DNA of 64,000 nucleotides from Candidatus Lustribacter sp. (GCA_965277805.1 OZ255842.1:4256001-4320000), one strand, 5' to 3'; positions 19,315-28,640 are shown, counted from the stretch's first letter. Notes: generated by a model not told the origin, from the sequence alone. Numbers and translations are program-made.

Positions 19315-20265
19315 ATGCAGCGGAACGGCTTTCTCTCGGCGCTGGGAGCGCTGTGCGCGGCGGGCGCTCCACGCGCTGCGTTCGCCGCCACTGCGCCGGT
19401 GACGATCCGCGCCGCCGCAACGCTCGACGACGACGCAACGCCGTTCATCTGGGCCACGCAAAACGGAAACTTCAGCCGCAACGGCATCGACGCATCGATC
19501 ACGCGCGGAACGAGCGGCGCGGCCATCGCCGCCGGCGTGATCGGCGGCGCCTACGAGATCGGCAAGTCGAGCATCACGACGCTGTGCGCGGCGCATGCCC
19601 GCAACGTTCCGCTGGTGTGGATCGCGCCCGCCGGCGAGTACGACAGCACGATGGCGATGCGGCTCGCCATGATCGTGAAATCCGATAGCCCGATCAAGAC
19701 CGGCGCCGACCTCAACGGCAAGACGATCGGAGTGTCGGGGCTCAACGACATCTTCTCGCTTACCTCGCGCGCGTGGGCCGACAAGAACGGCGGCGATTCG
19801 TCGACAATCAAGCTCGTCGAGATCCCGATGGCGCAGGCCGGGCTGGCGGTGGAAGCGGGACGGCTCGATTGCGCCGTCGTCATTCAACCGTTTTTGGATG
19901 CGGCGATCGCGGGCGGGAAAGTGCGCGTGCTCGCCGATCCCAACAGCGCGGTCGCGCCGCGGTTCATGCAAGCCGCATGGTTCACGTCGGCGGATTTCGC
20001 GGCGAAGAACCCGGCCGCGATCGACAGCTTCATCCGCGTCATGCGCGACGCGTCGACATACTGCAATAGCCATCACGCCGAAACGGCCAAGCTGCTATTG
20101 AGTTATCTCAACATCACGGTACCGCTGAACTCGCGCATCCTGCTCGGCGTGCGCTTCAATCCGGATCTGATCCAAACGCTGATCGACATGCAAGTCCGCT
20201 ACAAAATGCTGCCCGCACCGGTGAACGCGCGCGACTTGATCTACCCCGCCGCTCTCCGCGCCTGA
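19315..20265 (+). CDS. ABC-type substrate-binding protein (SsuA/NMT1-THI5-like), no adjacent permease
   Basis: Export signal MQRNGFLSALGAL...AAFA; SPIKTGADLNGKTIGV, GGDSSTIKLVEIP, FAAKNP motifs. Confidence 0.85.
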   Translation: MQRNGFLSALGALCAAGAPRAAFAATAPVTIRAAATLDDDATPFIWATQNGNFSRNGIDASITRGTSGAAIAAGVIGGAYEIGKSSITTLCAAHARNVPLVWIAPAGEYDSTMAMRLAMIVKSDSPIKTGADLNGKTIGVSGLNDIFSLTSRAWADKNGGDSSTIKLVEIPMAQAGLAVEAGRLDCAVVIQPFLDAAIAGGKVRVLADPNSAVAPRFMQAAWFTSADFAAKNPAAIDSFIRVMRDASTYCNSHHAETAKLLLSYLNITVPLNSRILLGVRFNPDLIQTLIDMQVRYKMLPAPVNARDLIYPAALRA

Positions 20266-20275
20266 GGAAATGTGA

Positions 20276-21550
20276 ATGCTCTCTCACGCTGACAATGAAC
20301 GCCTCACCCGGGTTGGGCCCGGTACGCCGATGGGAACGCTCTTCCGGCGCTACTGGCTGCCGGCGCTCTTGGCCGAAGAGGTGCCCGAACCCGACGGCGC
20401 GCCGGTCCGCGTGCGGCTGCTCGGCGAAGACTTGGTCGCGTTTCGCGACAGCGCCGGCAAGGTTGGATTGATCTCGGCGTACTGCCCGCACCGGCGCGCA
20501 CCGATGTTCTTCGGGCGCAACGAAGAGTGCGGGCTGCGCTGCGTCTATCACGGCTGGAAATTCGACCGCAACGGCGCCTGTGTCGACATGCCGTCCGAAC
20601 CGCCGGATTCGCTGTTCAAGACGAAGGTCACGATCGATGCCTACCCGACCTGGGAAGGCGGCGGCATGATCTGGGCGTACCTCGGGCCGCCGGAGCTCAA
20701 GCCGGAACCGCCGGGTCACGAACTCGTGCGCACCGCGCCCGAGAACCGCTACGTCTCCAAATCGCTCGAGGACTGCAACTTCTTGCAGGCGCTCGAGGGC
20801 GGCATCGATCCGACGCACGCGACGATCATGCACAACGGCAACATCGGGGACCGCACGTTCCTCAACGACTACGACAAGCTCGTTGCCGAACTGAACCTCG
20901 ACCGCACGGATTACGGCTTCACCTACACCGGCATCCGGCCGCGCGGCGCGCACACCTGGGTGCGCGGTTATCACTGGATCATGCCGTCGTTCCACATGCG
21001 CGCCCGCTCCGAAGGCAACTTCGGCCGCAAAATAGATCACGACGAAATTCCAACAATCGACGGCCACATCTGGATTCCGATCGACGATACGCAAACGTGG
21101 GTCTACAATTTCGGCTACTCGCACGATCCCGCGCAGCAGCTCTCGCGCGAACAAGCTCACGTGATCGAAACGCGGCTCGGACGCGGCGATTATCTCGATG
21201 CGAACTACGTCTCGCGGCTCAATCGCTCGAACGATTACGGCATCGATCGTCAGCGTCAGAAAACGCAGTCGATGACCGGGATCGAGGGCATCAACACGCA
21301 AGACTTCGCGCTGCAAGAGGGCATGGGCACGATCGTCGATCGCTCCAAAGAGCATCTCGGCACGACCGATCGTGCGATCATTACGCTGCGTCAAATCTTG
21401 CTGGAATCGCTCGACGCGCTCGACCGCGGCGAAGACCTGCGCGCGATCGATCCGGCAACCTACCGCAACGTGCGCTCCATCGATCGCATGGTCGACAACA
21501 CCCTCGACTGGCGCCTCGCCACCAAAGAAGACTTCGTTGCACGATATTAG
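20276..21550 (+). CDS. Rieske non-heme iron oxygenase, phthalate 4,5-dioxygenase-like alpha subunit
   Basis: N-terminus LTRVGPGTPMG-LFRRYW; Rieske CPHR...CVYHGWKF; mononuclear Fe ligands DPTHATIMH and QDFALQE. Confidence 0.92.
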   Translation: MLSHADNERLTRVGPGTPMGTLFRRYWLPALLAEEVPEPDGAPVRVRLLGEDLVAFRDSAGKVGLISAYCPHRRAPMFFGRNEECGLRCVYHGWKFDRNGACVDMPSEPPDSLFKTKVTIDAYPTWEGGGMIWAYLGPPELKPEPPGHELVRTAPENRYVSKSLEDCNFLQALEGGIDPTHATIMHNGNIGDRTFLNDYDKLVAELNLDRTDYGFTYTGIRPRGAHTWVRGYHWIMPSFHMRARSEGNFGRKIDHDEIPTIDGHIWIPIDDTQTWVYNFGYSHDPAQQLSREQAHVIETRLGRGDYLDANYVSRLNRSNDYGIDRQRQKTQSMTGIEGINTQDFALQEGMGTIVDRSKEHLGTTDRAIITLRQILLESLDALDRGEDLRAIDPATYRNVRSIDRMVDNTLDWRLATKEDFVARY

Positions 21551-22526
21551 GGGAGACGCCACGCCGCTGCTTGCGGTCGCGATCGGCGATCCGTCGGGCG
21601 TCGGCACCGAAATCACCGTCAAGGCACTCGCCACCGGCGAGCCGCAGCGGCGCAGCCGCGTCATGCTGATCGGCAATCACGACGGCATCGTCGAGACCGC
21701 GCGCACGGCCGGCCTCGATCTACGGTTCGAGCGCGTCGCGGATGCGGCGCAGGCGGGCGCGTTGCCGGGTGCGGCGATCCCCGTCTACGACGACGGCGCG
21801 GTCACGCTGGGTGACTATACCGTCGGGCAGCCCAGCGCCGCCGGCGGCCGCGCCACGGCGGGCTGGATCGCGCGCAGCGTGGCGTGGGCGGAGGCGGGCG
21901 CGATCGACGGCTTCATCATCGGGCCGGTTGACAACAGCTCGTTCAAGCTGGCCGGCTTCGCCAAATCTCCGCCCGGCATGAACCCGGCCAACTCGTACCT
22001 GCTGCGGATGTCGGGCAAGCTGCGCTTCATTCCGCTGGGCGAGCACGTCATGATGCGCGACGTGCCGCCGATGGTCACCACGGCCAAGGTGCTCGAGGTC
22101 ATCACGCTGATCGGCAAGACCCTCACCGGCTGGGGCGTGTCCAATCCGCGTATCGCCGTGGCCGGGCTGAACCCGCATGCCGCGGGCAGCGAAGATGCCG
22201 AACAGATCGCCCCGGCGGTCGCCGCCGCTCAAGCCGCCGGTCTCGACGTCAAAGGCCCGCTCTCGCCCGATACCGTCTTCCGCCGGGCGCTCCACGGCGA
22301 GTTCGACGTGGTCGTGGCCATGTATCACGACCAGGGCCAGATCGCCATCAAGACGACGGGCTTGGAAGAGGCCTGCGCCATCTTCATCGGGCCGCCCTAC
22401 GTCCGGGTCGGCACGCCCCACGGCTCGGCCCTGGACATCGCCGGCCAGAACAAGGCCCAGTTCGGCACGATGCTGACCGCCCTGAACGCCGCCTCGTCGC
22501 TCGCCGCCGGCCTCGGCCTCTCGTAG
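21537..22526 (+). CDS. PdxA-family dehydrogenase (possibly TphB-like decarboxylating dihydrodiol dehydrogenase)
   Basis: AIGDPSGVGTEI, GLNPHA, GPLSPDTVF, AMYHDQG, HGSALDIAG; probable TTG start overlapping the Rieske stop. Confidence 0.88.
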   Translation: MHDIRGDATPLLAVAIGDPSGVGTEITVKALATGEPQRRSRVMLIGNHDGIVETARTAGLDLRFERVADAAQAGALPGAAIPVYDDGAVTLGDYTVGQPSAAGGRATAGWIARSVAWAEAGAIDGFIIGPVDNSSFKLAGFAKSPPGMNPANSYLLRMSGKLRFIPLGEHVMMRDVPPMVTTAKVLEVITLIGKTLTGWGVSNPRIAVAGLNPHAAGSEDAEQIAPAVAAAQAAGLDVKGPLSPDTVFRRALHGEFDVVVAMYHDQGQIAIKTTGLEEACAIFIGPPYVRVGTPHGSALDIAGQNKAQFGTMLTALNAASSLAAGLGLS

Positions 22527-22544
22527 GCGCGCGATTGGGGGGTG

Positions 22545-22567
22545 TCCCTCAACAGGCTCGGGATGAC
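22545..22567 (-). repeat. Short REP-like palindromic unit, family B
   Basis: Minus strand reads GTCATCCCGAGCCTGTTGAGGGA; intergenic; similar to 391-413. Confidence 0.4.
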
Positions 22568-22665
22568 GTGGGGCACTTCTTAGGGTCGCCCCACGGGGCT
22601 TGGAGGAAAGCCTAACTCGCCAATTAAACGCCCCTAACTATGAGCAGCCCGGCGAGTCCCCGTTC

Positions 22666-22878
22666 GTGATCGTCTGTATGTGCAATGCCCTGGGCGAGCG
22701 CCAAATCTGCGCCCAGCGCGATCGCGGCGTGGCCACCGCCCGCGACGTCTTCAAAGAGCTGCAGTGCGAGCCGCGTTGCGCGACCTGCGTCCCCGAAATC
22801 GAAGACATCTTGTCGGCGAAGGCGTTTCTGCCGGTCTATCAATCCTCGCCGAATTCGCCGGCCGCGGATTGCAGATAA
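22666..22878 (+). CDS. bfd: Bacterioferritin-associated ferredoxin (Bfd-like [2Fe-2S])
   Basis: GTG start, MIVCMCN...CEPRCATCVPEI (CxC-x31-CxxC), adjacent to bfr. Confidence 0.88.
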   Translation: MIVCMCNALGERQICAQRDRGVATARDVFKELQCEPRCATCVPEIEDILSAKAFLPVYQSSPNSPAADCR

Positions 22879-23321
22879 TTCGGTTCGCCCATCTTTTGGG
22901 CCAGACCGAGTTGCGTTTCGAGATAGTCGATATGCTCTTCGGAGTCAACCAGTATCTTCGTCGCGATCTCCCGGCTGACGTAGTCTTTTTCGCGTTCGAA
23001 CAGCTCGATCGCGGCCGCCGTGTCGTTGCGCGCCACCGTCTCGAGCTTCAAATCCGCGCTCAGCGTTTCGAGCACGTTCTCGCCGATGTGCAGTTTCCCG
23101 AGGTCCTGAAAATTCGGCAGCCCGTCCAACAGCAGAATGCGTTCGGTGAGTTTGTCGGCATGTTTCATCTCGCCGATCGACTCGTGGTAGATCTTTTCGC
23201 CGAGCGCCGCAAAGCCCCAATGCTTGAGCAGCCGCGAGTGCAAGAAGTACTGGTTGATCGCGGTCAACTCGTTGTAGAGCATCTTGTTGAGCGCCGCGAT
23301 GATCTCCGGGGGTGCCTGCAT
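22839..23321 (-). CDS. bfr: Bacterioferritin
   Basis: NELTAINQYFLH, ESIGEMKHADKL (ferroxidase ligands plus heme Met), RILLLDGLPN, SEEHIDYLETQL. Confidence 0.97.
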   Translation of the reverse strand: MQAPPEIIAALNKMLYNELTAINQYFLHSRLLKHWGFAALGEKIYHESIGEMKHADKLTERILLLDGLPNFQDLGKLHIGENVLETLSADLKLETVARNDTAAAIELFEREKDYVSREIATKILVDSEEHIDYLETQLGLAQKMGEPNYLQSAAGEFGED

Positions 23322-23371
23322 CTTGAGCCTCCGATTCCTGCGCCGACGCCCTTCGCGAAACGGGCGGCATA

Positions 23372-25252
23372 ATGCTCTGCGTCCGCCGCATCCTGATCGT
23401 CGCGTTTTTTATTCTATCCGCGTGTCTTGCGCACGCCGGCGCCGCCTTTGCCGACTTCGACAACGCACCGCCGCCGGGCATCAATCCCAATACAGTCGGT
23501 ATGCAGCCGCTCGTCGCGCCGTTGCCGGTCGCCACCGCGGCGCCGGGCGAGTCCCCGCTGCGCCCGCGCGAAGATGGTTCGTTCGATGCGATCCCGCTCG
23601 TGCAGGGCAATCAGAAAACGTTCACGCTCGTAGAACGCTCCGCGCCGTGGACGCTCAAGCCCGGACTGACCGTTCTCGCGACGACGTATAATGGCGTCGT
23701 TCCAGGGCCCGTGCTGCAGGTGAACGAGGGCGATCGCGTCGTCATCAATTACACCAACGCTTCGGACACGCCGGACACGATCCACCTGCACGGCATTCAC
23801 GAGATCCCGGTCTCGATGGACGGTGTCGGCGGCATCTCGCAACCGCTCGTGCAGCCGGGCGGCCACTACCAATACCGCTTTACCGCCGACACGCCCGGCA
23901 CGTTCATGTATCACACGCACGGCAACGAAGCGCAGCTCGATAAGGGACTCTACGGCGCAATCGTCGTGCTGCCGCGCCATCCGCGGCCCGAAGAAGCGAA
24001 TACGAAGCACGACTTCGTCGAAATGCTGACCGGCTGGCACATCCAGAGCACGGCGGAAAATCACTGGACGATCAACGGCAAAGAATATCCGGCGACGCAG
24101 CCGATGAACGTAAAAAAGGGCGAGCGCTTCCGCATCCGCTGGATCAGTTTGACCGCGGAAGACACGCACACGATGCACACGCACGGTCACTACCAAGTGA
24201 TCATCGCGCGCGATGCGCAACCGGTCGAGACGCACGACGTAATGGACACGGTGCCGCTCGCGCCGGGCCAGCGCGTCGACGTCGTCGTCACCGCCAACCA
24301 GCAGCCGGGCACGTGGCTCGTGCACTGCCACGTCATGGATCACATCGAAGACGCGGGCGGCATGCCGGCGGGCTTGATCACCGCGATCCAATATGCGGGC
24401 GCGCCCAATCTTCTAACGGCCATGGGCCCGGCGATGTCAGTCGGCATGACGATGCCGGCCGGGCCCAAACCGCTCGACTTCACGACGACCGTGATCCTCG
24501 GCCTGATCGCGGGCTTGACGATCTTCGTCGGCTTGCCGATCGCCCGCACGTCGAAGCTCTCGCCGTACAAAGTCGGCCTGCTCAACGCGCTCGCGATCGG
24601 CATCCTGCTCTACCTCGTCATCGAGATCGCGCAGAACGCGATCGGTCCGATCTCGCAAGCGCTCACGTCGTGGCACAACGGCGTCGGCAGCTTCCCCTAC
24701 GCGCTGCTGGCCGTCTTCGTTGCGGGTCTGCTGATCGGGCTCGTCGGGCTCGGCAGCTTCGCGACGATGCTCACGAAACGCGCTGCCAAACGCGCTGAAA
24801 ACCCGCTGATTCTCTCCGCGATCATCGCGATCGGCATCGGTGCGCACAACTTCGGCGAAGGCCTCGCCATCGGTGCATCTGCCGCATCCGGCGCGACGGC
24901 GATCGCGATCGGCTTGATCGTCGGCTTCGGGCTGCACAACGCAACCGAAGGCTTCGGCGTCGCGGCGCCGCTGATCGGCAAGTACGTGCCCAGCTGGACG
25001 CAAATCGGCCTTGCCGGCCTGATCGCGGGCGGACCGACGTTCCTCGGCACCGTGGTCGGCTACTCGTTCAACTCGCCGGTGCTCTCGGTGCTCTTCCTCT
25101 CGATCGCGATCGGCGCGCTGGTCTTCGTCATCGGCGAATTGTGGTCGGTGCTCAAACACACCGGCCTCACCGCGATGGCCACGACGTGCATGACGATCGG
25201 CTTCCTGATCGCGTTCGCGACCGAACTCTTTCTCGACATGCAAGGCGGTTAG
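23372..25252 (+). CDS. Fusion of a two-domain multicopper oxidase and a ZIP-family metal transporter
   Basis: Signal peptide; Cu motifs TIHLHG, MYHTHG, HTMHTHGH, HCHVMDH...M; then about 8 TM helices with HNFGEG and HNATEG; one uninterrupted ORF. Confidence 0.9.
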   Translation: MLCVRRILIVAFFILSACLAHAGAAFADFDNAPPPGINPNTVGMQPLVAPLPVATAAPGESPLRPREDGSFDAIPLVQGNQKTFTLVERSAPWTLKPGLTVLATTYNGVVPGPVLQVNEGDRVVINYTNASDTPDTIHLHGIHEIPVSMDGVGGISQPLVQPGGHYQYRFTADTPGTFMYHTHGNEAQLDKGLYGAIVVLPRHPRPEEANTKHDFVEMLTGWHIQSTAENHWTINGKEYPATQPMNVKKGERFRIRWISLTAEDTHTMHTHGHYQVIIARDAQPVETHDVMDTVPLAPGQRVDVVVTANQQPGTWLVHCHVMDHIEDAGGMPAGLITAIQYAGAPNLLTAMGPAMSVGMTMPAGPKPLDFTTTVILGLIAGLTIFVGLPIARTSKLSPYKVGLLNALAIGILLYLVIEIAQNAIGPISQALTSWHNGVGSFPYALLAVFVAGLLIGLVGLGSFATMLTKRAAKRAENPLILSAIIAIGIGAHNFGEGLAIGASAASGATAIAIGLIVGFGLHNATEGFGVAAPLIGKYVPSWTQIGLAGLIAGGPTFLGTVVGYSFNSPVLSVLFLSIAIGALVFVIGELWSVLKHTGLTAMATTCMTIGFLIAFATELFLDMQGG

Positions 25253-25267
25253 CGCCGCCGCGCGCAC

Positions 25268-26617
25268 TCACTTCCCGATACAGAAGCGGGCGAAAATGCC
25301 GTCGAGGACCGCTTCGGTTGCAACGGCGCCGGTGATCTCGCCGAGCGCGGCGAGCGCGGCCAGCAGTTCGGGCGCGATGAGATCGAGCGCGTCGCCCAGG
25401 TCGAGCGTTTCGCGCGCGCGGGCTAGCGCTTCGCGGGCACGCGACACGGCGCCGGCCTGGCGCGCGGAGGCGAGGTGCGCGCGGGCGAGATCGATGCGTT
25501 CGGTGCCCCAGCCGGCGCGCGCGATCGCGCGGCGCAGCAGATCGAGTGTGGGCTCCGCGAGCACGCTGCCGTGCAGCGCGTCGGCCTCCGGGGCTTCGCG
25601 CGCGTCGTAGCCGGCGCGGCCGAGGTCGCTCTTGTTGAACAGCACCACGCGCGGACGCGTGCGCGTCGCCTCCAGCACCGCGATCGCATCCGCATCGAGA
25701 GGCTGCGCACCGTCGACCACCACTAGCGCCACCGCCGCGCCTTCCAGCGCGCGCCGGGCCCGCTCGATGCCGATCTGCTCGACCGCATCTTCGCTCGCGC
25801 GCATTCCGGCGGTGTCGAGGATGCGCACCGGCACGCCGTCGATGAAGAAGCGCTCCTCGATCACATCGCGCGTCGTGCCCGCCGTCGCCGCCACGATCGC
25901 GCGTTCTTCGCCGAGCAGCGCGTTGAGCAGCGACGACTTGCCCGCGTTGGGCGGGCCCACGATCGCAAGCGACAGGCCCTCGCGCACGAGCCGGCCGCGC
26001 TCCCAGTCCGCAACCAGCGCTGCGAGCGCCGCTTCGCACGCCGCGAGCCGCCCGTCGACGTCCGCGCGGCCGGGCTCGGGCACTTCGTCCGGATAGTCGA
26101 TCGCGCCGGCGAGTTCTTCCAGCACCGTCGCGAGCGGCGCGCTCACCGCGTCGATCGCGGTCCGCAAGCCGCCGGTCAGGTTCGCTTGCGCCGCCCGCGC
26201 GCCGGCCCGCGACTCGGCCTCGATCACGTCGGCAACCGCCTCGGCTGCGCTCAGGTCCAGCTTGCCGTTGAGAAATGCGCGGCGCGTGAATTCGCCCGGT
26301 CCGGCCGCGCGCGCGCCGGCGGCCAAGAGCGCGCGCAGCGTCTCGCGCGCGACCACCGGGCTGCCGTGCACGTGCAGTTCGACGATGTCTTCGCCCGTTA
26401 CGGTGCGTGGCGCGTCCATCGCGAGCGCCAGGCCCCGATCCAGCACGGCGCCGTCGACGTCGAGGATCTCGCCGTAGGTCGCAACGCGGTCGGCGAGCGG
26501 TGCGCGGCTGCGAAAAACGCGCGCCACGATCGTGCGCGCGTCGGGACCGCTACAGCGGACGATCGCGATCGCACCGCGCCCCGGCGGGGTCGCGATCGCC
26601 GCGATCGTCTCAGGCAC
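25268..26617 (-). CDS. mnmE: tRNA modification GTPase MnmE (TrmE)
   Basis: TIAAIATPPG, GEFTRRAFLNGK, GPPNAGKSS, GTTRD, DTAG, NKSD, C-terminal FCIGK. Confidence 0.97.
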   Translation of the reverse strand: MPETIAAIATPPGRGAIAIVRCSGPDARTIVARVFRSRAPLADRVATYGEILDVDGAVLDRGLALAMDAPRTVTGEDIVELHVHGSPVVARETLRALLAAGARAAGPGEFTRRAFLNGKLDLSAAEAVADVIEAESRAGARAAQANLTGGLRTAIDAVSAPLATVLEELAGAIDYPDEVPEPGRADVDGRLAACEAALAALVADWERGRLVREGLSLAIVGPPNAGKSSLLNALLGEERAIVAATAGTTRDVIEERFFIDGVPVRILDTAGMRASEDAVEQIGIERARRALEGAAVALVVVDGAQPLDADAIAVLEATRTRPRVVLFNKSDLGRAGYDAREAPEADALHGSVLAEPTLDLLRRAIARAGWGTERIDLARAHLASARQAGAVSRAREALARARETLDLGDALDLIAPELLAALAALGEITGAVATEAVLDGIFARFCIGK

Positions 26618-26619
26618 TT

Positions 26620-27198
26620 TTACTTCGGAGAAACGACCAGCCGGCGATCGGGGTCGACGCCTTCCGATTCGGTCCGCACGACCGACGATTCCGATAGCGC
26701 GAGATGCACGATCTTGCGTTCGCTCGGCAACATCGGCTCGAGTTTGATCGCCTTGCCTTCGCGAATCACGCGCTCCAGCGTCGCAAGCGCGAGCGTCTTG
26801 AGCTGGTCCGCTTTACGCGCGCGATAGCCTTCGGCATCGATCGTGTAATAGCGCCGGTTGTTGCGCACGCCGGCGTTGAGGATGTTGTTGAAGATCAGGT
26901 TGAGCGCTTCGAGCGTGTTGCCGTTGCGGCCGATGAGATTCGCCAAGCGCGGCCCGCGAATTTCGAAGTACTCGCCTTCCGAACGCGCGATGTAGACGAT
27001 CGACACATCGTCGATGCCCATCTTCCCGAGCAGCTCTTCGAGCAGCGTGCGCGCAGGTTTCGCTTCGGCCGGCTCGACCGATGCCGCGGTCGTCGAACGC
27101 GGCGGCGCCGGCCGGCGATCGAACCGGCCGCCGCCGCCCGAGCGTCCGCGCCCGCGGTCGCCGTAGTCGCGCCGTCCGGAACCGTGATCGTTATCCAT
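26620..27198 (-). CDS. jag: Jag/EloR (KhpB) RNA-binding protein with KH and R3H domains
   Basis: LIGRNGNTLEAL (KH), IDAEGYR, LEPM-ERKIVH (R3H), TESEG-DPDRR; between yidC and mnmE. Confidence 0.88.
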   Translation of the reverse strand: MDNDHGSGRRDYGDRGRGRSGGGGRFDRRPAPPRSTTAASVEPAEAKPARTLLEELLGKMGIDDVSIVYIARSEGEYFEIRGPRLANLIGRNGNTLEALNLIFNNILNAGVRNNRRYYTIDAEGYRARKADQLKTLALATLERVIREGKAIKLEPMLPSERKIVHLALSESSVVRTESEGVDPDRRLVVSPK

Positions 27199-27222
27199 GC
27201 TCAATCCTTCGTCCTAAAAAAT

Positions 27223-28065
27223 TTAGCGTTTGCTGCGGCGCGATGCGCGGCCGCTGGTACTGCCGTTCTTACCGCCGGTGATCGCCGCGCGGTTCGAGGT
27301 TTTACCGTTGGTGAGAGGGGCCGCTTCGACCGTTTCGACGGCGGCTTTTTTCGGGCCGATCAAACCGTAGCGGCGATACATGTAGAACTGTTGCGCCATC
27401 GTCAGCACGTTGAGCATCAGCCAGTAGATCAACAGCGCCGATGCCCAGTGATAGCGCCAGCCGAAGTACGCGATCATCGCCGGCGAAACGATCGCCATGA
27501 TCTTCTGCGTCTGCGCTTGCTGCGGATCGCTCGACGGCGGACTGCCGTAACGCACGCTCAAGTACATCGATACGACGTAAAGCACGAGCAGCACGAAGTC
27601 CATTTCGCCGAGGTTGGCGGCGAGCACGCCGTGCGTGAGCTTGTCGATGCCGTCTTGCATCCACAGGAAGTGCGCGGCTTTGAATTCCGCGAGCTGCGAG
27701 TTGATGGCGTAGAACAATCCGAGCAAAATCGGCAACTGGATCAGCATCGGGAAGCAGCCGGCCAGCGGATTGACGCCGTGTTCTTTGTAGAGCGCCATCG
27801 TCGCGGCTTGCAGCTCTTGCGGCTTGCCCTTGAACTCGGCTTGGATCTTCTTGAGCAGCGGCTGCACTTTCTGCATTTCCGCCATCGACTTGAACTGCTG
27901 TTGCGCGAGCGGGAAGAGCGCGAGGCGCACGACCAGCGCCAGCAGCACCATGTCGAGTCCATACGACGGAACCACCGAGTGGATCGCTTTGAGCACGCCC
28001 AGCATCGCGTCGGTAACCGGCTGGAAAAAATTAAAGGCGAACAAGGGGGACTGGGAGCCTTTCAC
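27223..28065 (-). CDS. yidC: Membrane protein insertase YidC (short form, no large periplasmic domain)
   Basis: VRLALFPL, QPLLKKIQ, LYKEHGVNPLAGCFPMLIQLP, FLW, IYW-N-QQ. Confidence 0.95.
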   Translation of the reverse strand: MKGSQSPLFAFNFFQPVTDAMLGVLKAIHSVVPSYGLDMVLLALVVRLALFPLAQQQFKSMAEMQKVQPLLKKIQAEFKGKPQELQAATMALYKEHGVNPLAGCFPMLIQLPILLGLFYAINSQLAEFKAAHFLWMQDGIDKLTHGVLAANLGEMDFVLLVLYVVSMYLSVRYGSPPSSDPQQAQTQKIMAIVSPAMIAYFGWRYHWASALLIYWLMLNVLTMAQQFYMYRRYGLIGPKKAAVETVEAAPLTNGKTSNRAAITGGKNGSTSGRASRRSKR

Positions 28066-28119
28066 AGGCGGCTCGGCCGAAGGCCGAACGCGAAGGATTC
28101 GCCGACGGCGGATCCACCA

Positions 28120-28329
28120 CTAAGGAACGGGATCGAACCCGCCGGGATGCCAGGGCGCGCATCGAACGATGCGCCGAACCGCCAGAAATACCCCGCGAAA
28201 CGGACCATGTTTCTCGATGGCAGCCGCCGCGTACTCCGAACACGTGGGTACGAAACGGCACGCCGGCGGCAGAATCGGCGAGAGCAAGCGCTTGTATGTA
28301 GTGATGAGGGCGACGAGCAGGCGGGTCAC
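28120..28329 (-). CDS. yidD: Membrane protein insertion efficiency factor YidD
   Basis: [17 protein letters not shown]...[17 protein letters not shown]. Confidence 0.96.
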
Positions 28330-28640
28330 CGGAAGAACCGTCCGAGTTCCGCCGCGACGGCCGCGAATTCGGCCTCGCCGGCCCCCGGCCGGGCGATCAG
28401 CACGACGTCGCGGTGCGGGGCCGCGCCGAAGGCCGTCCGGTCGAGAAACGCTTTGACCCGCCGGCGCAGACGATTGCGGACCACCGCATTGCCGATCGCC
28501 TTGGAGACGGTGATGCCGACCCGGGACGGCCCGCGCGTGGCGGCGGTCAGGAAAACGAAAAGGGGCCCAACTTGCCGCTCGCCGCGACGTTGGACCCGCG
28601 CAAAGTCGCTCCGCCGGCGGAGCGATTGGTACCGGCGCAT
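28326..28640 (-). CDS. rnpA: Ribonuclease P protein component
   Basis: [28 protein letters not shown] (RNR motif). Confidence 0.95.

Follow-up and report, generated by a model that had tools for sequence, protein, structure and literature searches.

A conserved fusion between a two-domain multicopper oxidase and a ZIP transporter in Eremiobacterota and its probable link to iron

The fusion gene and its distribution

The DNA analyzed here (the window) is a 64,000-nt stretch from Candidatus Lustribacter sp. (GCA_965277805.1 OZ255842.1:4256001-4320000), which carries on its plus strand a gene for a two-domain multicopper oxidase (MCO) fused in a single polypeptide to a ZIP-family metal permease. 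A sequence-only reading had described this product as one exported chain of 626 aa, and the open reading frame (ORF), the Pfam and NCBIfam matches and an alignment of homologues all confirm that description; every motif named in that reading was found where it had been reported, including the HCH codons at 24323-24331. The divergent bacterioferritin gene bfr does begin 50 nt from the fusion ORF, with a bfd-like gene adjoining, as had also been claimed. The MCO-ZIP fusion gene is real and conserved, and the following features were assigned to it and to its immediate surroundings.

23372..25252, plus strand: MCO-ZIP fusion gene, ATG start, 626 aa plus stop, the sole ORF listed there
23372..23452, plus strand: signal peptide, approximately residues 1-27, helix 2-31 in the structure model, with a hydrophobic N-terminus in relatives
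23594..23986, plus strand: cupredoxin domain 1, approximately residues 75-205, Pfam Cu-oxidase_3, with HLH at 23783-23791 and HTH at 23912-23920, no Cys
23999..24406, plus strand: cupredoxin domain 2, approximately residues 210-345, Pfam Cu-oxidase_2, with HxxHxHxH at 24167-24190 and HCHxxxH at 24323-24343
24407..24475, plus strand: Met-rich linker, residues 346-368, connecting the oxidase to the first membrane helix
24476..25249, plus strand: ZIP permease domain with eight transmembrane helices (TM), NCBIfam ZupT, with HNFGEG (TM4) at 24845-24862 and HNATEG (TM5) at 24935-24952
23322..23371, no strand: 50-nt spacer to the divergent bfr, without the TTAGG-N4-CCTAA operator described below
22839..23321, minus strand: bfr, bacterioferritin, TIGR00754 at 213 bits
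22600..22878, plus strand: bfd-like [2Fe-2S] ferredoxin, Pfam Fer2_BFD (E 5.9e-07), tail-to-tail with bfr

Within Eremiobacterota, the fusion is conserved throughout a class of soil bacteria. The best 120 database homologues measured 528-651 aa in length at 66-93% identity, and all of them carried MCO families; by our own count, Zip also appeared in the precomputed Pfam annotation of 93 of these 120. The sources named for the homologues were Ca. Cybelea, Ca. Lustribacter, Vulcanimicrobiaceae and Eremiobacteraeota. At a threshold of E <= 1e-10, 290 of the 401 genomes of the phylum matched the fusion, distributed as 242/296 in family f1, which includes the window's genus, 5/5 in f2 and 29/30 in f3, with mostly none in the other families. 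The best 150 matches listed, each from another genome, were near-full-length and contained no internal stop; 433 further matches lay beyond them. Family f3 belongs to another order of the same class (hereafter the sister order), and all four of its genomes that were checked held a full-length copy with 46-49% identity. Full-length fusions are thus found throughout two orders of Eremiobacterota at 46-93% identity. Among the representatives of a library clustered at 50% identity, same-order fusions (MCO followed by ZIP) comprised P0241 and P0242 only. The phylum tallies, both for the fusion and for the Cyc2-like gene introduced below, include genomes flagged as unpublished (G264, G178, G248, G276, G360, G238, G246, G128, G233, G345, G329 and G330), and no locus-level claim rests on these twelve.

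The conservation of the fused frame already refutes the trivial explanation, an assembly or sequencing artefact by which two separate genes were falsely joined at the domain junction, and we regard its chance as negligible. The frame is continuous in the best 150 listed matches and in 76 aligned homologues. Split adjacent MCO and ZIP genes, the arrangement expected if relatives encoded the two halves separately, occurred in none of 80 genome loci and none of 80 metagenome loci. Contigs of two sequencing runs also span the junction (24400-24500) with 0 differences; these probably derive from the source sample and are probably not independent, hence their support is weak.

An AlphaFold2 model of the fusion protein (mean pLDDT 84.8, pTM 0.61) featured the signal helix, beta structure over residues 63-341, a short helix at 348-356 and eight membrane helices. 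When N-termini were compared, the signal peptide of the relatives ended in A-x-A followed by D-A-D, and the window protein would accordingly be cleaved after AFA and before DFD. An ordinary cleaved signal peptide appears more likely than a lipoprotein signal; the latter, suggested by a lipobox-like LSAC, was rejected because the signal-peptide Cys is not kept in relatives. A twin-arginine (Tat) signal was judged unlikely, since RR is present in some N-termini only. The early Arg-Arg pair in the signal peptide of several members, including the window protein (window 23372-23400), is not conserved; it raises possible Tat export for a fusion protein that also has eight membrane helices.

The oxidase and permease halves

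Pfam assigned Cu-oxidase_3 to residues 97-202 (E 1.7e-33) and Cu-oxidase_2 to residues 228-326 (5.1e-25), in addition to a Cu-oxidase match (7.8e-17). All four MCO copper motifs (HxH, HxH, HxxHxH and HCHxxxH) are present in the fusion protein, as HLH (H138/H140), HTH (H181/H183), HTMHTHGH (H266/H269/H271/H273) and HCH (H318-C319-H320) followed by H324. In an alignment of 76 fused proteins with 41-88% identity, each of these residues, as well as D323, is invariant (76/76). M331, the candidate axial Met of the type 1 site, is located seven residues after H324; it is present in most of family f1 and is replaced by Gly or Val in the sister order.

Domain 1 reads YHTH and lacks a Cys, so that C319 in domain 2 is the only type 1 copper Cys, a pattern that we take to define the type B class of two-domain oxidases. 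The sequence-only reading had named this class and labeled the pattern SLAC-like, and the position of the Cys agrees with it. The closest solved structures by phmmer, 2zwn (1.7e-50) and 3g5w (2.8e-44), have their Cys in domain 1, so "SLAC-like" describes the ligand pattern and not the nearest relatives. Foldseek likewise returned two-domain MCOs as the best matches of the model (2zwn, 3g5w, 3gdc and 7rab, target TM-score 0.76-0.81). These proteins, which include a metagenomic laccase (2zwn) and an enzyme of Nitrosomonas europaea (3g5w), share the fold and motifs of the fused oxidase (phmmer E 1.7e-50 to 4.3e-29). The fusion differs from 2zwn and 3g5w in that these combine a Cys in domain 1 with HDH in domain 2, the opposite of its own arrangement, and none of the four solved proteins is fused to a transporter.

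Oxidase-only orthologues were also observed (L054:5908-7125, in genome G011, and P0243), with 52-58% identity to the oxidase half and a C-terminal single membrane anchor that replaces the ZIP domain. The copper ligands of P0243 have decayed and its HCH motif is lost, and it looks like a degenerate offshoot. The Lustribacter genome encodes a second MCO outside the window (G000:C1:4013079-4014302; locus L002, ORF 1363-2742), a 459-aa protein with a match to a third (central) oxidase domain, which is 29-37% identical to the fused MCO over the aligned parts.

The two halves are joined by a short linker that contains the segment AMGPAMSVGMTM (residues 350-361). Met makes up 9.5% of the linker residues vs 2.8% of the protein overall, and at least two Met are found in the linker of 76/76 homologues.

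The permease half was identified by the NCBIfam ZupT model PRK04201, which covered residues 371-612 (model positions 6-256 of 266, E 2.4e-10). Pfam Zip (PF02535) matched residues 480-585 with 24.2 bits, under the curated cut-off of 35.1, and relatives lie above this cut-off (P0495, 57.5 bits; P0333, 49.3 bits; P0415, 47.2 bits). A search of solved structures with the ZIP domain alone by phmmer gave no meaningful match; BbZIP (5tsa) was found by profile search only, where the ZIP-subfamily profile aligned to it over positions 8-253, including all helices (E 1.9e-11). HNFGEG (residues 492-497) and HNATEG (residues 522-527) align to the TM4 and TM5 motifs of BbZIP, and H492, N493, E496, H522, N523, E526 and E589 are invariant in the 76 homologues. 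The fusion thus resembles ZupT/GufA-like ZIPs, BbZIP included, in having eight helices and paired TM4/TM5 metal motifs; it differs from BbZIP by H-N in place of Q-D in TM5, and the large N-terminal oxidase is peculiar to the fusion. It is the sole ZIP-family match in the Lustribacter genome.

The predicted topology has eight helices with both ends outside, which would place the oxidase of this inner-membrane protein on the periplasmic face. In the eight-helix model, nine Lys and Arg residues fall in the predicted inside loops vs 0 in the outside loops, a bias that puts the oxidase outside the membrane, as ZIP topology requires. Structure prediction, which the sequence-only reading had proposed as a check, therefore supports an oxidase outside the membrane through both the AlphaFold2 helices and this charge bias.

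In other lineages, fusions of the same two families also occur in the reverse order. ZIP followed by MCO was confirmed by Pfam in 10/10 proteins checked, with conserved copper ligands and ZIP motifs; one of them, P0503 from Ca. Methylacidithermus pantelleriae, is annotated only as a "multicopper oxidase domain-containing protein". In a ZIP-domain tree (58 domains, quick maximum-likelihood search), the same-order fusions grouped together (support 84) amid standalone ZIPs, and 13 of 14 reverse fusions formed a separate clade (support 100), with P0245 grouping elsewhere (support 100). The reverse-order fusions thus share both families in one chain with the protein studied here and differ from it in domain order and ZIP clade, and this combination indicates that the fusion arose more than once. 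No regulator, DtxR-family genes included, was found beside two reverse-order fusion loci. At one locus (L144:5085-6512, plus strand), an OprB-family porin gene follows the reverse-order ZIP-MCO fusion after approximately 280 nt, with RND efflux genes further on. Same-subfamily ZIPs with a C-terminal single blue-copper (Cupredoxin_1) domain were also seen (P0334, P0360 and P0333); in the 593-aa forms, the fused part is a cupredoxin-like stretch accompanied by a long tail without a family match.

Regulators, a shared operator and the gene neighborhood

In the sister order, a DtxR-family gene lies directly upstream of the fusion on the same strand, abutting or overlapping its start, in 5/5 loci. 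The encoded regulator contains the Pfam domains Fe_dep_repress, Fe_dep_repr_C and FeoA, and its closest solved relatives are IdeR structures (7b24 at 3e-26 and 1fx7 at 2e-25), with MntR at only 7e-10. Alignment to IdeR 7b24 showed that EMYL and EACRxEH are conserved, with Met10, Cys102, Glu105 and His106 kept in 5/5 fusion-linked regulators; His79 and His98 of the ancillary site are not conserved. Cys102 is also retained in all six main DtxR-family regulators of family f1 that were read. According to PMC10317159, Met10 and Cys102 as sulfur ligands raise Fe2+ selectivity, Asp or Asn, and Glu, take their place in MntR proteins, and DtxR-family proteins bind DNA in their metal-bound form. Standalone ZIPs (L061-L140, L141-L220) in Chloroflexota, Actinomycetota and Dormibacterota often stand head-to-head with a DtxR-family regulator, and together they probably form an unannotated manganese-uptake pair.

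A perfect copy of the 14-bp palindrome TTAGG-N4-CCTAA lies upstream of the regulator-fusion operon in 5/5 loci of family f3. At up to one mismatch, this operator was found at the fusion gene in 40/52 loci and, after duplicate removal, in 37/37 genomes of family f1 outside the window's genus. The median gap between the operator and the next in-frame start codon of the fusion is 2 nt in f1, and this position on the start codon leads us to read the operator as a repressor site. Elsewhere in the 386 kb of loci, the background amounted to 10 operator matches, nine of which were the boxes of the f3 operons. Perfect boxes are rare, each of the six genomes scanned containing 0-3.

The window itself contained two operator matches, each with three mismatches, vs 0.72 expected, and neither lay in the 50-nt spacer; its fusion locus (L001) had none at up to one mismatch. 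A 19-bp iron-box consensus gave 0 matches in the window at up to three mismatches. Scanning 22400-25500 for promoters and terminators returned 0 promoter-like sites and three terminator-like sites vs 2.8 expected, and nothing meaningful was found among inverted repeats near the fusion start codon.

The single perfect box of the Lustribacter genome is located outside the window, upstream of a gene for a 382-aa secreted protein (G000:C1:366301-367446, minus strand). The operator cluster lies at G000:C1:367481-367494, with two imperfect copies beside the perfect box (loci L223 and L238). Orthologues in G144 and G133 (39-44% identity) also carry the box, and the operator precedes the gene in 29/30 genomes of the class, 119-188 nt upstream of the CXXCH codons. 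Each of the 30 proteins contains exactly one CXXCH, and 27/30 show the signature A-x-P-x-F-A-x-x-[FYTW], CXXCH, x3-P-x-L, mostly with His at the consensus Arg. The 29 aligned proteins are 352-386 aa long, a few of them under 365 aa. The structure model (pTM 0.76) shows exactly 16 strands preceded by a small helical head, and Foldseek matched it to 16-strand porins, including OprP and OprO; Pfam and NCBIfam searches of this protein matched no family. PMC8406198 characterizes Cyc2 by a signal peptide, a single CXXCH with AXPXFAR[Q/K][T/Y] upstream of it and PXL four residues downstream, a length of at least 365 aa and a 16-strand porin. As judged from its sequence and model, the product of the co-regulated gene is Cyc2-like, with the predicted properties of a fused cytochrome-porin. 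The same source presents Cyc2 as a validated Fe2+ oxidase family, with Fe2+ oxidation as its only validated role, and Cyc2 in one Eremiobacterota genome has already been noted and read as potential Fe(II) oxidation in PMC8357290. Genome G095 has the Cyc2-like gene next to the fusion in divergent orientation, and a separate box belongs to each of them.

The operator also overlaps the ATG of ribBA in one genome only, G144 (L237, G144:C1:3822358-3825371, box at 1501-1514). The encoded protein combines DHBP synthase and GTP cyclohydrolase II with an N-terminal helix-turn-helix (HTH) domain, and the box is a hint that the regulon extends to flavin synthesis.

The sequence-only reading had connected the fusion to iron storage through its adjacency to bfr and bfd, and this part of it failed. 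Neither gene lies beside any of the 33 other fusion loci, that of the same-genus genome G145 included: tblastn searches that used bfr, bfd and mnmE of the window as queries gave no match in any of them. Ferritin and BFD families were absent from 114 neighbor ORFs of 18 fusion loci, bfr and bfd from 80 genome loci of standalone ZIPs, and bfr from 80 metagenome loci (bfd was not among the queries there). We therefore reject this synteny as a functional link, the adjacency being confined to the window's genome. No conserved neighbors of the fusion were found in family f1, where MFS, DMT_6, DUF302, ArsR and DoxX occur sporadically. As called, the bfd-like gene and bfr overlap by 40 nt tail-to-tail (22839-22878), and the true bfd start may be an ATG near 22640.

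Proposed function and its alternatives

The physical coupling of an oxidase to a ZIP, as proposed by the sequence-only reading, stands by virtue of the single chain, and the proposed link to iron is now suggested by the regulator, the operator and the Cyc2-like gene instead of bfr and bfd. Iron is probably the best-supported metal, as indicated by the IdeR-type regulator, the conserved operator and the Cyc2-like co-regulation. We tentatively read the fusion as an iron-starvation-induced oxidase-permease, built with Fet3/Ftr1-like logic from a two-domain MCO and a ZIP, and give this reading slightly less than an even chance. An IdeR-type repressor would keep the fusion gene off at sufficient iron. 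On derepression, the chains would assemble as a trimer through their oxidase domains: two-domain MCOs of solved structure form trimers in which the trinuclear copper clusters arise where subunits meet, and the best-matching structure entries hold chains in multiples of three. Periplasmic Fe2+ might then be bound and oxidized right above the permease, on the side of domain 2 that holds the type 1 copper, and the ZIP would move the metal into the cell, either as Fe3+ handed over by the oxidase or as Fe2+, in which case the oxidase would guard selectivity. We infer that the protein forms a trimer and is an active oxidase, that its substrate is iron, that high iron represses the gene and that transport is inward. 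A wider scheme, possible but rather doubtful, is a hitherto unrecognized Eremiobacterota iron-starvation regulon marked by the 14-bp operator, in which an outer-membrane Cyc2-type cytochrome-porin, used for acquisition and not for lithotrophy, and an inner-membrane trimeric MCO-ZIP, whose ZIP would take over iron from the oxidase, would together provide redox-gated iron import across two membranes. If this scheme holds, the fusion would be the first ZIP-based oxidase-permease and a covalent "Rosetta stone" for the cooperation of MCO and ZIP in archaeal pairs too.

Several observations weigh against the uptake of iron by this route. Binding of the operator by an IdeR-like protein, and repression through that binding, would follow from position and family habit only. 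The operator is found at the fusion gene in 0/2 genomes of the window's genus (G000 and G145), which, judging from these sequences, has lost it there. In the main DtxR-family regulator of family f1, as read in G059, G000 and G145, Glu takes the place of Met10. The fusion and the Cyc2-like gene can each occur without the other: at our own thresholds (E <= 1e-50 for the Cyc2-like gene and E <= 1e-150 for the fusion), 18 of 47 f1 genomes contain both, 12 the Cyc2-like gene only, 12 the fusion only and five neither. In the oxidase, the acidic pair E326 and D327 after the type 1 copper His becomes Met-Met-Asn in the sister order, so that a conserved carboxylate site like that of Fet3 is not apparent, although D323 is invariant. 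Divalent ions are what ZIPs carry, and the metal-site motifs of the fused ZIP are identical to those of its standalone relatives, so no adaptation to Fe3+ is visible; oxidation of Fe2+ beside the ZIP looks counter-productive unless the ZIP accepts Fe3+. The remaining points against iron are those that favor another metal, and they are weighed with the alternatives below.

Copper acquisition, by which a cuprous oxidase would turn Cu+ captured by the Met-rich linker into Cu2+ for import by the ZIP, is in our estimate unlikely. The conserved regulator belongs to the DtxR/IdeR family, in which we know of no copper sensor, and the operator is common to the Cyc2-like iron-redox gene. Families of copper regulators, chaperones or P-type ATPases were absent from the 114 neighbor ORFs of the 18 loci and from the seven neighbor ORFs scanned at two reverse-fusion loci. 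Nevertheless, the Met-rich linker looks copper-like, as does the Met-Met that sister-order proteins and P0245 have directly behind the His of the type 1 copper, and both suit Cu(I) better than iron. P0334 joins a ZIP to one blue-copper domain, and a reverse-order fusion comes from a verrucomicrobial methanotroph. Methanotrophs and ammonia-oxidizing archaea have a high copper demand, and it is in such hosts that reverse fusions and the unfused pair occur. PMC5817080 tabulates MCO1+ZIP pairs in 6/7 genomes of archaeal ammonia oxidizers, and PMC7785015 reports a modest increase of the N. viennensis pair under Cu limitation (log2FC 0.81 and 1.33).

Iron might also be oxidized at the envelope for detoxification or electron disposal and not for uptake, which we consider distinctly improbable. 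In one version, the oxidase would remove periplasmic Fe2+, or pass electrons drawn by the Cyc2-like protein to O2; in another, the ZIP would release cytoplasmic Fe2+ that is then trapped outside as Fe3+, comparable to ferroportin with hephaestin. Periplasmic O2 reduction conserves no energy, and characterized ZIPs as a rule import metals into the cytoplasm. Bacterioferritin serves a high-iron function, and its head-to-head position with the fusion would fit detoxification, but this adjacency occurs in the window's genome only, and the distribution of the Cyc2-like gene is independent of that of the fusion. Fe2+ oxidation is the only validated role of Cyc2 (PMC8406198), Cyc2 in one Eremiobacterota genome has been read as potentially serving it (PMC8357290), and one ZIP, ZIP13 of Drosophila, reportedly exports iron from the cytosol (PMC12218971). 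Conversely, the operator abuts the start codon, and metal-bound DNA binding by DtxR-family proteins (PMC10317159) predicts expression at low iron. Manganese uptake, in which the ZIP would import Mn2+ and the oxidase would guard the channel mouth by clearing competing or toxic Fe2+ or Cu+, we hold to be very unlikely. It is favored by the standalone ZIPs of the same subfamily, which lie beside DtxR-family genes in 19/80 genome loci and 7/80 metagenome loci and probably import Mn2+. In the 18 regulators read at genome loci (L061-L139 without L080), the Met10 position holds Glu, Asp, Asn, Arg or His and the Cys102 position Glu, Asp, His, Ala or Gln, mostly acidic residues, and many regulators linked to standalone ZIPs thus look MntR-like. 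The Glu at position 10 of the f1 regulators points the same way, as does NCBIfam, where the Thermus-type MntR model scored 129 bits vs 105 for DtxR on the f3 regulator, both under their cut-offs. Against manganese, Cys102 is retained in the fusion-linked regulators, along with Met10 in those of the sister order, their closest structures are IdeR and not MntR, and the operator shared with the Cyc2-like gene fits iron better.

To our knowledge, oxidase-coupled metal uptake has been described only with FTR1-type permeases, and ZIPs are generally viewed as carriers of divalent ions that act alone. Fet3p/Ftr1p, the high-affinity iron uptake system of yeast, and the bacterial EfeUOB and FtrABCD likewise couple an extracytoplasmic copper-dependent oxidizing component to a permease and are induced by iron limitation, as we propose for the fusion. 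The fusion nevertheless falls outside the Fet3/Ftr1 class, since its permease is a ZIP and no FTR1 family was matched by Pfam. It further differs in having two oxidase domains and not three, and in its covalent coupling, and no Fet3-like conserved carboxylate site was found among the residues beside its type 1 copper. The nearest precedent is the archaeal MCO1+ZIP, a two-domain MCO genetically linked to a ZIP, for which oxidation followed by uptake has been suggested (Kerou 2016 as cited in PMC7785015 and PMC5817080). The archaeal pair consists of separate adjacent genes, in contrast to the one bacterial polypeptide described here, and the likeness is drawn from the descriptions in those papers only. 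The two systems also differ in that copper is the hypothesis for the archaeal pair, while the regulation of the fusion points to iron; the copper uptake idea still needs experimental validation, according to PMC7785015 itself. Apart from this unfused archaeal precedent, no description of the fused protein was found in print (subscription journals and supplementary files lay outside the search), in agreement with the sequence-only reading, which knew of no characterization of the architecture.

A covalent MCO-ZIP fusion that is conserved and has evolved repeatedly says that both activities belong together and would widen the principle of oxidase-coupled uptake. It also offers a single-gene system for studying how an oxidase could gate a ZIP, and makes the unvalidated copper-uptake idea for archaeal MCO1+ZIP directly testable in a fused version. 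Members of the ZIP transporter family have been solved as dimers, and the union of a ZIP with an oxidase of a trimer-forming type poses a structural question. The operator common to the fusion and the Cyc2-like gene provides an entry into the metal regulation of a poorly studied phylum, and it calls into question the reading of every Cyc2 homologue as a marker of iron-oxidizing metabolism.

Further genes of the window flank this region on both sides. At 19315-22526 on the plus strand, genes for an NMT1-like binding protein, a LigXa-like Rieske oxygenase and a PdxA-family dehydrogenase follow each other in a row; these may constitute a catabolic cluster, of an aromatic or phosphonate type, that has no relation to the fusion. 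Downstream of the fusion, at 25268-28640 on the minus strand, lie mnmE, an R3H/KH (jag-like) gene, yidC, yidD and rnpA. We take this gene order to be typical of the vicinity of the replication origin, which would place the fusion gene close to the origin.

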